In this document: positions 27,552-28,597 of the stretch, piece by piece
Layout: each line of letters opens with the position of its first letter
Position numbering within the stretch: the first letter of the stretch is position 1
Sequence record: PZ386976.1
Origin: a phage
DNA: 64,000 nucleotides
Strand: one strand, 5' to 3'
Made by a program: the position numbers and the translations under genes
The notes under the pieces: model-generated
Told to the model about the DNA's origin: nothing
The model's input: the letters and a program-made list of their open reading frames with translations, nothing else
Databases searched by the model: none

Positions 27552-27992
27552 TTAGAAAGGTTTTCTACGTTGCTTGTTAATGTTAGCTTTCATAGCAGCT
27601 AAGTGGTTTTGCTGTTCAATCAGTCGTGAGCGTTCTTGATGGCTAAGTGCCATAGTGTTCACATTCTCAATAGCTTGAGTGGCTTGCTTTAAAGCTCGAC
27701 CAATCTTACCAGACATTTTACGTTTTGCAATAGTTGCTTGATGTTTAGGTTCAACCACACGATAACCAACACCCATTGAAGCAACCAGATAAATCTTCTC
27801 TTCTTTAAGAAGCTTCTCAATAAACTTCTCAAGTCGGTTTAGACGTGTAAGCGCATAAGCCTTCATTTCATCTTCGTACTTAACAATGTCACCTTGATAA
27901 GTTGGCTTCACAATACCTAAGAAGGTATCCATCTCAGAATGTGATACAGTGTCACCGTAACTAAACTTTGCTGCTAATGCTTTTGTATTCAT
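27552..27992 (-). CDS. hypothetical protein (cassette gene 2)
   Basis: 146 aa; basic C-terminus; no motif recognised. Confidence 0.35.
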   Translation of the reverse strand: MNTKALAAKFSYGDTVSHSEMDTFLGIVKPTYQGDIVKYEDEMKAYALTRLNRLEKFIEKLLKEEKIYLVASMGVGYRVVEPKHQATIAKRKMSGKIGRALKQATQAIENVNTMALSHQERSRLIEQQNHLAAMKANINKQRRKPF

Positions 27993-27994
27993 AA

Positions 27995-28597
27995 TTAAAC
28001 GTTACCTTCTGAAATAACTTCTACAGAAAAACGACCAAAGCGTGGACGCCAATCACCTACACCACAAAGGTTACCAGCATTTTCCAGAACCATCAAAAGC
28101 TCTTCTTTGGTGATTTGCTCTTCATCGAACATCAAACCAAACTCTACAGACCAGTCACGGAAGATTGGACGGTAGCTCATAACTCGTGCTGTACCAATCT
28201 TAACAGACTTAGCATAGATAAAGTCTGGATTCTTAGCAAGTTCTTGTGGGTTTGCTGGGCAGTTCTTAATAGTCATTGGGAAGACTACATCTGTCAGCAT
28301 AATGGCTCGGTCAATTACCTTACCAAGTTTGTTGAGTTTTGCACCAGACTTGATACAAGCCTCAATCATCTCACCGTTCATAACAAAACCTAGCTGCTCA
28401 TCATAGTAACAGGAAGTTACTAGTTGGCTTTCTGCTAAGAGCGCATAGTCTTCGTCAGTCTTTTTACGTTTACTGGACAGAGACTTGTGATATTTTGTCA
28501 GAGGGTTTAATGGGTCTGACAGCGTATCGTTATGGCTCAGGAAAGGACGAGTACCAGTGATTTTGATATTTAACAGTTTCATAGCATTTAGCTCCAC
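27995..28597 (-). CDS. hypothetical protein (cassette gene 1)
   Basis: 200 aa; no motif recognised. Confidence 0.35.

Follow-up and report, generated by a model that had tools for sequence, protein, structure and literature searches.

VIPR systems (the name stands for Viral Interference Programmable Repeat) have been reported as ancestor-like relatives of CRISPR effectors that phages use against other mobile elements (bioRxiv 10.64898/2026.04.26.720920, 10.64898/2026.04.26.720927; hereafter, the preprints). Their guide RNAs, termed vrRNAs, are built from tandem YNNGG units, i.e., a pyrimidine, two free bases and GG, with about 9–16 units per RNA. In the type II system of phage SUSP1, Vipr protomers polymerise on the vrRNA, one per repeat, thereby sequestering each GGY; the NN dinucleotides pair with double-stranded DNA (dsDNA) in a gapped hybrid, an R-loop triplex, in which pairing is limited to the NN bases and each unit passes over one target base, so that every third target base is skipped. 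The SUSP1 vrRNAs are expressed, are bound by Vipr as a ribonucleoprotein (RNP) and repress matching dsDNA: target binding represses transcription, and cleavage is not reported for type II. The gene directly downstream of SUSP1 vipr has been named vap1, and its product enhances protection; guides of the SUSP1 clade converge on a satellite whose baseplate hub resembles that of the phage itself (all from the preprints). Here we relate to this system a two-gene cassette on the minus strand (27552–28597) of a 64,000-nucleotide stretch of phage DNA, sequence record PZ386976.1, which we call the window.

We consider it highly likely that the two genes encode the protein components of a type II VIPR system that silences genes of an Escherichia coli satellite. 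The identification draws on the identity of both proteins to those of SUSP1, the RAMP fold of the first protein, the flanking YNNGG vrRNAs with their tails, the matches between guides and satellite, and the co-occurrence of the same components in distant loci. By sequence comparison, this is essentially the same system as that characterised experimentally in SUSP1. Because the locus is a near-identical orthologue, the system is already known, having been described and structurally solved in the 2026 preprints; only the guide repertoire of this phage and the orphan anti-vipr guides of its relatives are new here.

The likeness to SUSP1 is extensive: the gene order, the 2-nt gap between the genes and their place between a DNA ligase gene and the next early gene are the same, as are the promoter, the leader hairpins, the two types of vrRNA tail and the terminal hairpin; Vipr is 98% and Vap1 99% identical. 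On the other hand, the window carries five vrRNAs (two upstream and three downstream of the genes) whereas SUSP1 carries four (one and three), none of the five guide tracts is the same as any in SUSP1, and the window genome is Felixounavirus-like whereas SUSP1 belongs to Suspvirus.

The backbone subunits of class 1 CRISPR-Cas effectors (Cas7, Csm3, Cmr4) provide a more distant comparison. They share with Vipr an RRM core, a G-loop and a thumb (TM-score about 0.5), in them, too, the protomers sit one by one at a constant spacing along the guide RNA, with bases flipped out regularly. However, this locus lacks an array of identical direct repeats with unique spacers (which run to about 30 nt), and it holds just two open reading frames (ORFs), without cas genes for adaptation (cas1/cas2) or for the rest of a multi-subunit effector (cas5, cas6, large subunit); the VIPR guide is read discontinuously (two of every five RNA bases, two of every three DNA bases); and VIPR targets dsDNA without a protospacer-adjacent motif and is here encoded by a lytic phage. 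The shared RAMP fold by itself therefore does not make this a CRISPR-Cas system. In that programmable binding blocks transcription, VIPR also resembles dCas9, or Cascade without Cas3 (preprints); in VIPR, however, this is the natural mode, either DNA strand can be targeted, and the R-loop is of a triplex type.

Two genes orthologous to SUSP1 vipr and vap1

The window derives from a Felix O1-like myophage (Ounavirinae): 148 phage records match the region at 80–99% identity, and almost all belong to Felixounavirus or to related Ounavirinae. The cassette is flanked by an ATP-dependent DNA ligase gene (29002–30141) on one side and a small early gene (26618–27001) on the other, and the minus-strand pair at 27995–28597 and 27552–27992, which the original prediction had delineated, are the sole ORFs in between. 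Of the two protein lengths then proposed, 146 aa stands; the 200-aa reading begins at GTG 28597, which overlaps a Shine-Dalgarno sequence, GGAG, at 28592–28595. The true vipr start is almost certainly ATG 28582, giving 195 aa, because of this overlap, because the solved SUSP1 protein has 195 aa, and because nearly all homologues have 188–195 aa. The tight coupling of the two genes is also borne out, with a gap of 2 nt rather than 3 nt between the vipr stop codon (27995–27997) and the vap1 ATG (27992). The two genes are:

27995–28582, minus strand: vipr, encoding the 195-aa Vipr protein, a predicted minimal RAMP (Cas7-like) subunit (from SUSP1 identity, AlphaFold2 model with Foldseek, and RNA-contact residues)
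27552–27992, minus strand: vap1, encoding a 146-aa Vipr-accessory protein, probably DNA-binding (from SUSP1 identity and family members that follow vipr elsewhere)

The absence of any placeable motif, as first described, holds for Pfam, in which Vipr has no match, and for PHROGs, which place Vipr and Vap1 in two families that are both of unknown function. It does not hold for the PDB sequence set, in which a phmmer search with Vipr returned a single entry, 36pp chain D, 'SUSP1 Vipr protein' (E 6e-128; 191/195 identical); the identity to SUSP1 ALH47069.1 is the same, 191/195. A profile built from 42 diverse Vipr homologues also finds 36pp, at 5e-80. The structure paper lists H17, E71, M72, R138, C173, D177, W178 and R179 as the residues that contact GGY (preprints); all eight are present in the window Vipr, the four differences from SUSP1 Vipr lie outside them, and the Vipr loop motif is conserved across the 42 homologues. 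We also modelled Vipr with AlphaFold2 from our own alignment (pLDDT 94.8) and compared the model by Foldseek with PDB structures released up to April 2026: almost all of the top 50 matches are CRISPR backbone RAMPs, among them Csm3, type VII Cas7 and Cmr subunits, with TM-scores of about 0.5 and E values down to 7e-5. This agrees with the description of Vipr as a minimal RAMP in the preprints.

Vap1 is identical at 145 of 146 positions to SUSP1 ALH47068.1, the product of the gene directly downstream of SUSP1 vipr. A word-indexed homologue search recovered only Ounavirinae copies; an exhaustive search recovered 234 distant homologues, so that the family comprises at least 234 proteins, of about 150–170 aa. 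The AlphaFold2 model of Vap1 (pLDDT 96.2) comprises a helix-strand-helix, a β-hairpin and long C-terminal helices. Its Foldseek matches in the PDB are weak (best E 0.4) and consist mainly of winged-helix proteins: GntR, MarR, ScpB, histone H1 and SaeR. Against Pfam, Vap1 gave only a sub-threshold chance match, and a PDB profile search with the Vap1 family returned nothing useful; neither Pfam nor Foldseek gave a Cas-like match. Pfam, searched with both proteins, and Foldseek, searched with Vap1, revealed no nuclease domain.

Repeat arrays with the grammar of vrRNAs

Judged by their sequence, the repeat arrays on either side of the cassette are five vrRNAs, guide RNAs for Vipr, encoded on the same strand as vipr. 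The arrays themselves had been noted in the original prediction and are far beyond chance: with respect to GG at a period of five, four arrays score 8–9 of 10 consecutive units, as compared to a maximum of 6 of 10 among 40 shuffled strands, and within the 64 kb the pattern is confined to the minus strand of this locus. Anchoring on the conserved tail sequence brought out the fifth array, which is more degenerate. Each array has 11–17 YNNGG units, ends with the unit TATGG, and is followed by one of two constant tails. Two vrRNAs, A and B, lie upstream of vipr; C, D and E lie downstream of vap1. We also considered whether the arrays could be a CRISPR array, and rejected this: the units are of 5 nt with two variable bases, and there is no repeat-spacer organisation. 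The elements outside the two genes, in the order in which they would be transcribed, are:

28968–28995, minus strand: putative sigma-70-type promoter, TTGACA-16-TATACT, upstream of vrRNA-A (11/12 consensus matches)
28900–28936, minus strand: leader hairpin (about 19 bp) before vrRNA-A, candidate processing or boundary element (minimum free energy, MFE, –17.9 kcal/mol; z –5.8; 0/200 shuffles)
28809–28900, minus strand: vrRNA-A, 11–12 YNNGG units (28844–28900) and pseudoknot tail (28809–28843), from the scan for arrays and tails, as for all five vrRNAs
28771–28809, minus strand: spacer hairpin between vrRNA-A and vrRNA-B (MFE –11.4 kcal/mol; z –2.5)
28659–28770, minus strand: vrRNA-B, 16 YNNGG units (28691–28770) and hairpin tail of type 2 (28659–28690)
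27518–27540, minus strand: intrinsic terminator after vap1 (stem 27525–27540 and T-run)
27486–27524, minus strand: spacer hairpin before vrRNA-C (from folding)
27381–27485, minus strand: vrRNA-C, 14 YNNGG units and pseudoknot tail
27343–27381, minus strand: spacer hairpin before vrRNA-D (MFE –17.8 kcal/mol; z –5.2)
27224–27342, minus strand: vrRNA-D, 17 YNNGG units with an internal four-unit duplication; pseudoknot tail of a second allele, with compensatory changes
27187–27223, minus strand: leader-type hairpin before vrRNA-E (same sequence as 28900–28936)
27094–27187, minus strand: vrRNA-E, 12 YNNGG units and hairpin tail of type 2
27045–27092, minus strand: terminal hairpin with T-run, closing the downstream array (from folding and a scan for promoter-like sites)

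The unit grammar was quantified with 40 vrRNAs from 10 related phages, which represent 37 distinct tracts and 463 units. The information content at the five positions is 1.44, 0.10, 0.12, 1.06 and 1.75 bits; T is present at position 1 with a frequency of 0.90, and G at positions 4 and 5 with frequencies of 0.79 and 0.97. The Y and GG are thus conserved and the NN hypervariable among relatives, which is the published grammar. The constant parts of the vrRNAs are near-identical among the 10 phages. As for the guide tracts, A and B are shared with Andreotti and ULIM8 (the tract of A being identical in both), and C, D and E are unique to the window in this set. A search of Rfam assigned the vrRNAs to no family; the only match, inside vap1, is by chance (E 0.74).

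The tail of type 1 is a pseudoknot with 11 pairs, for which 154 of 154 cells are paired (slid controls pair at 21–38%). Three pairs of its second stem, which forms the pseudoknot, show compensatory changes between the two alleles; independent compensatory events are few, because the data comprise essentially one allelic switch plus one variant. The two copies of the type 2 tail differ in their stem, GGTAG/CTACC as against GGCAG/CTGCC. Before each vrRNA stands a 17–19-bp hairpin, in either of two sequence types, with MFE values down to –17.9 kcal/mol and z-scores down to –5.8. These hairpins probably mark the limits of the units or serve as sites of processing (by RNase III, for example); the preprint text does not mention RNase or RNA processing. 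The first guide unit (TGATG) lies partly within the hairpin stem, and yet it matches the target of guide A.

Two of the guides differ in the number of their units. Guide D (27258–27342) contains a tandem four-unit duplication, TATGG TTTGG TGAAG TAATG / TACGG TTTGG TGAAG TAATG, and in guide B (28691–28770) the unit TATGG occurs three times, as against twice in Andreotti and ULIM8. These differences suggest that slippage or unequal recombination changes guide length.

With regard to the signals that delimit the operon, the promoter lies directly past the ligase stop codon and is kept in both SUSP1 and Felix O1. The terminator previously placed at 27522–27545 is real, with its stem corrected to 27525–27540: a 6-bp stem (AGCCTC/GAGGCT) with a TTCG loop is followed by a T-run down to 27518, and this is the sole terminator-like site within 26900–29100. 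In the terminal hairpin and T-run (27045–27092), the loop and 3' arm hold TTGACA-17-TATTTT, a promoter-like site of the gene at 26618–27001; the product of that gene is a 127-aa protein with a signal-peptide-like N-terminus.

Predicted targets of the guides in an E. coli satellite

Four of the five guides are predicted to target an E. coli satellite that bears near-copies of phage tail genes. As a probe for the satellite we used the window gene at 13486–14283 (plus strand), the next after the tape-measure gene; of 5426 complete E. coli genomes, 474 have a 'phage baseplate protein' gene that this probe finds, and the DNA identity reaches 94%. Carriers of the satellite include E. coli strain 20 (CP064847) and MRE162 (CP119404). 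The satellite is a chromosomal island of about 9–11.5 kb, with genes for a serine recombinase, tape-measure and baseplate proteins and an HNH endonuclease, together with small ORFs. It is inserted at no fewer than four sites (yciI/tonB, ymdF/wrbA, a position beside dinB, and a DUF72 gene that adjoins yecD), and several copies are interrupted by insertion sequence elements. Megablast with the whole satellite was uninformative on its spread, in that 144 bp of chromosomal flank matched the tonB region in nearly every genome. The satellite probably parasitises this phage, as we infer from its near-copies of the phage tail-tip genes and from the preprints.

We scanned 508 kb for targets, including 12 satellite loci (L005–L011 and L022–L026) sampled from the 474 genomes, with the published pairing rule. 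Guide A matches the satellite serine-recombinase gene at 21 of 22 NN bases; the match is in frame, and the bases passed over are those at wobble positions. For guide B, the match is to the recombinase gene of another satellite variant (24/30 NN; L007 and L011). The match of guide C is to a gene for a Dam-like DNA N6-adenine methyltransferase (23/26 NN, with 10 consecutive units perfect; L024, 3109–3147), a target that was found only on sampling more satellites. Guide E matches the first ORF (558 bp) of the satellite operon, at 20/22 NN, in six satellites. Among the predicted sites is also L005, 15188–15220. For all four of these guides, skip lengths of 0, 2 and 3 gave background, and 0 of 200 shuffles of unit order reached the observed scores.

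For guide D, partial-guide scans reached at best 14/16 over eight units, no better than background. In IMG/VR, exact-pattern scans with the ten central units of C and of D gave no match. No guide reaches 80% NN within the phage's own DNA (64 kb of a roughly 88-kb genome), where the best scores are 17/22, 19/30, 18/26, 21/32 and 16/24, and the host chromosome that flanks the satellites gave background matches only.

Five of the 12 satellites also carry vrRNAs, with a tail like the phage type 2; tblastn finds neither vipr nor vap1 there. A satellite-borne guide of the same kind is reported in the preprints. The guide in L009 matches other satellites at 22/24. These satellite-borne vrRNAs, recognised by tail similarity, are:

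L009, 3048–3127, minus strand of the locus
L011, 4120–4199, minus strand of the locus
L023, 2893–2962, minus strand of the locus
L025, 3055–3124, minus strand of the locus
L026, 3278–3347, minus strand of the locus

Relatives without vipr, and distant loci

The flanks of the locus are present in 231 phage records, only 132 of which encode Vipr: 118 at ≥90% identity, and 14 that are distant, in phages of Gordonia, Pseudomonas, Mycobacterium and Listonella. About 100 related phages lack the cassette; one of them is Felix O1, in which a 282-bp spacer takes its place. Since it is present in only part of the relatives that share the flanks, the cassette is accessory. Among VIPR-positive phages, the proteins are 98–100% conserved and the guide sets differ. 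Three records are named for unrelated hosts, GU169904 (Staphylococcus phage SA1), MG065664 and MG065668 (Campylobacter phages A132 and A126), and contain Felix O1-like sequence; the SA1 record carries a 99.5% identical vipr. These are probably mixed or mis-assigned assemblies.

A side observation from these comparisons is that vipr-less relatives retain, at the same site, one or two promoter-driven orphan vrRNAs. The orphan guide common to Felix O1 (L004, about 1560–1720) and mio (L030) matches the window at 28085–28117 (minus strand), inside vipr and in frame, at 20/22; it also scores 19–21/22 in seven other VIPR-positive phages, and the wobble-position differences coincide with skipped bases. 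EC6 (L028) has a different orphan guide, which matches 28518–28544 (plus strand), again inside vipr, at 16/18. None of 300 shuffles reaches either score on vipr. A third orphan guide, in radambza, is almost the same as guide E of the window; that of NJ12 has no significant match in a scan with a 1-nt skip. We tentatively suggest, with a little less than even confidence, that vipr-less phages use the Vipr of a rival to shut down the rival's VIPR operon in co-infection, i.e., as an RNA-only counter-weapon. The preprints mention guides against other VIPR systems for the Pseudomonas clade only, and the words orphan and Felix are absent from the main text.

The vipr-less Felixounavirus LF82P2 (L017, about 400–650) has two orphan vrRNAs. 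The second of these guides matches satellite sites at 18/20 (L010, 5630; L008, 3615), and so would be satellite-directed in a phage with no resident Vipr.

At greater distance, three loci (on contigs from Xanthomonadaceae, from Rhodococcus and from a metagenomic phage) encode Vipr proteins of 40–49% identity. In each, a gene of the Vap1 family overlaps or abuts the 3' side of vipr (hmmsearch E 5e-51, 8e-16 and 5e-43, respectively), and 3–5 YNNGG arrays on the same strand follow the pair of vipr and vap1 homologue. Together with the P. fulva prophage locus described in the preprints, these type II-like loci thus resemble the window in having vipr, a vap1 homologue and 3–5 same-strand arrays; they differ in the lower Vipr identity, in units that are mostly CNNGG rather than TNNGG, and in simple hairpin tails of other sequence. 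In the P. fulva clade, the predicted targets also differ, being resident prophages (preprints). The units in question lie at 4028–4332 (L018), 4117–4663 (L019), and 2849–2918 and 4067–4242 (L021). Rather than by a pseudoknot, these vrRNAs are closed by a short hairpin of their own, e.g., GGGCTGTAAACAGC or GGGCTATTTTGTAGT; the Rhodococcus locus has five consecutive vrRNAs.

Discussion

The original prediction took the cassette for an accessory module with a part in genetic conflict, and specifically for a host-takeover or anti-defence pair insulated by the repeat arrays. The general proposal stands: the module is self-contained, and variable among the relatives that share its flanks. A protein-only cassette (for example, a defence-system inhibitor), with arrays that serve as insulators or recombination hot spots, would also fit a location among early genes, the possession of its own promoter and terminator, and the failure of Pfam and PHROGs to assign a function. 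Nevertheless, we regard it as extremely unlikely, given the 98% identity of the first protein to an RNA-guided DNA-binding protein of solved structure, arrays that carry the exact YNNGG grammar and the tails of Vipr guide RNAs, guides that decode to a satellite and not to defence genes, and the co-occurrence of vipr, vap1 and arrays across phyla. The arrays, far from being insulators, would be the functional partner of the first protein. Nor did we find a housekeeping function that is invariable among relatives: the cassette varies, and Felix O1 is without it.

An active VIPR system could also serve mainly to regulate the genes of the phage itself or of its host, as a temporal switch or in host shut-off, its satellite matches being secondary. 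Silencing by binding is regulatory in mode, guide D has no satellite target, and about half of the guides in the SUSP1 clade have identifiable targets according to the preprints. We nonetheless consider such a main role improbable: within the window no guide attains 80% NN (the best being 17/22), four of the five converge on one element, the host chromosome beside the satellites gives only background, and the preprints report no self-targeting. There is a still slimmer chance that targets are destroyed by nuclease-based interference, in the manner of CRISPR-Cas, instead of being silenced. The Vipr fold is Cas7/Csm3-like, Csm3 is an RNase, and other VIPR types have nuclease or helicase accessory genes (preprints); however, a nuclease domain is detected in neither Vipr nor Vap1, and the preprints class type II accessory proteins as DNA-binding and show that binding represses GFP and lambda cro/cI. 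Equally slim, in our estimation, is the prospect that the locus is a decaying relic, in which the genes are intact and the guides are too degenerate, or their targets too diverged, to work. Many units lack GG (e.g., TGATG, TAATG, TGAAG), guide D is internally duplicated and without a target, and the best guide matches are imperfect. Set against this, Vipr is 98–100% conserved across 118 Ounavirinae records in which the surrounding DNA is about 90% identical, its RNA-contact residues are all kept, guide A matches its target even at the first unit, which is partly degenerate, and the characterised SUSP1 guides are similarly degenerate.

Several observations weigh against our preferred reading, that of a type II VIPR system that silences satellite genes. 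Guide D has no detectable target in the 12 satellite loci. The best matches of the other guides are imperfect (80–95%), and each is present in only some of the 12 satellites sampled from the 474 genomes; moreover, several units in B, D and E are degenerate, with TG or AG in place of GG. No promoter belonging to the downstream array (C–E) was identified beyond the vap1 terminator. The DNA-binding role of Vap1 is without statistical support in the structure comparison. Finally, the mechanism is transferred by analogy from SUSP1, for which it rests on preprints, and the dependence of the satellite on this phage is presumed from the shared tail genes and those same preprints.

For this phage, we infer vrRNA expression, RNP formation and repression from the 98–99% protein identity to SUSP1 and the identical constant RNA parts. 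The promoter after the ligase gene would drive vrRNA-A, vrRNA-B, vipr and vap1, and the hairpins would mark the boundaries of the vrRNA units or serve in their processing. By analogy with SUSP1, a Vipr filament on each vrRNA would present the NN bases, bind satellite dsDNA and block transcription. The RNPs would thereby silence the satellite's integrase/recombinase, its Dam-like methyltransferase and the first gene of its operon, an effect that Vap1 may increase. Silencing of the satellite would limit a parasite that carries copied tail-tip genes, and so protect phage yield.

The function of the locus is most probably RNA-guided interference between elements, and not anti-defence. With the locus recognised, what over 100 Ounavirinae genomes (among them phages for therapy and typing) list as two 'hypothetical proteins' and two 'repeat regions' becomes a defined system with decodable specificity. 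Furthermore, the decoded guides point to a widespread satellite, the baseplate gene of which is present in 474 of 5426 complete E. coli genomes, and give rise to testable predictions as to which strains would reduce, and which would support, phage yield.

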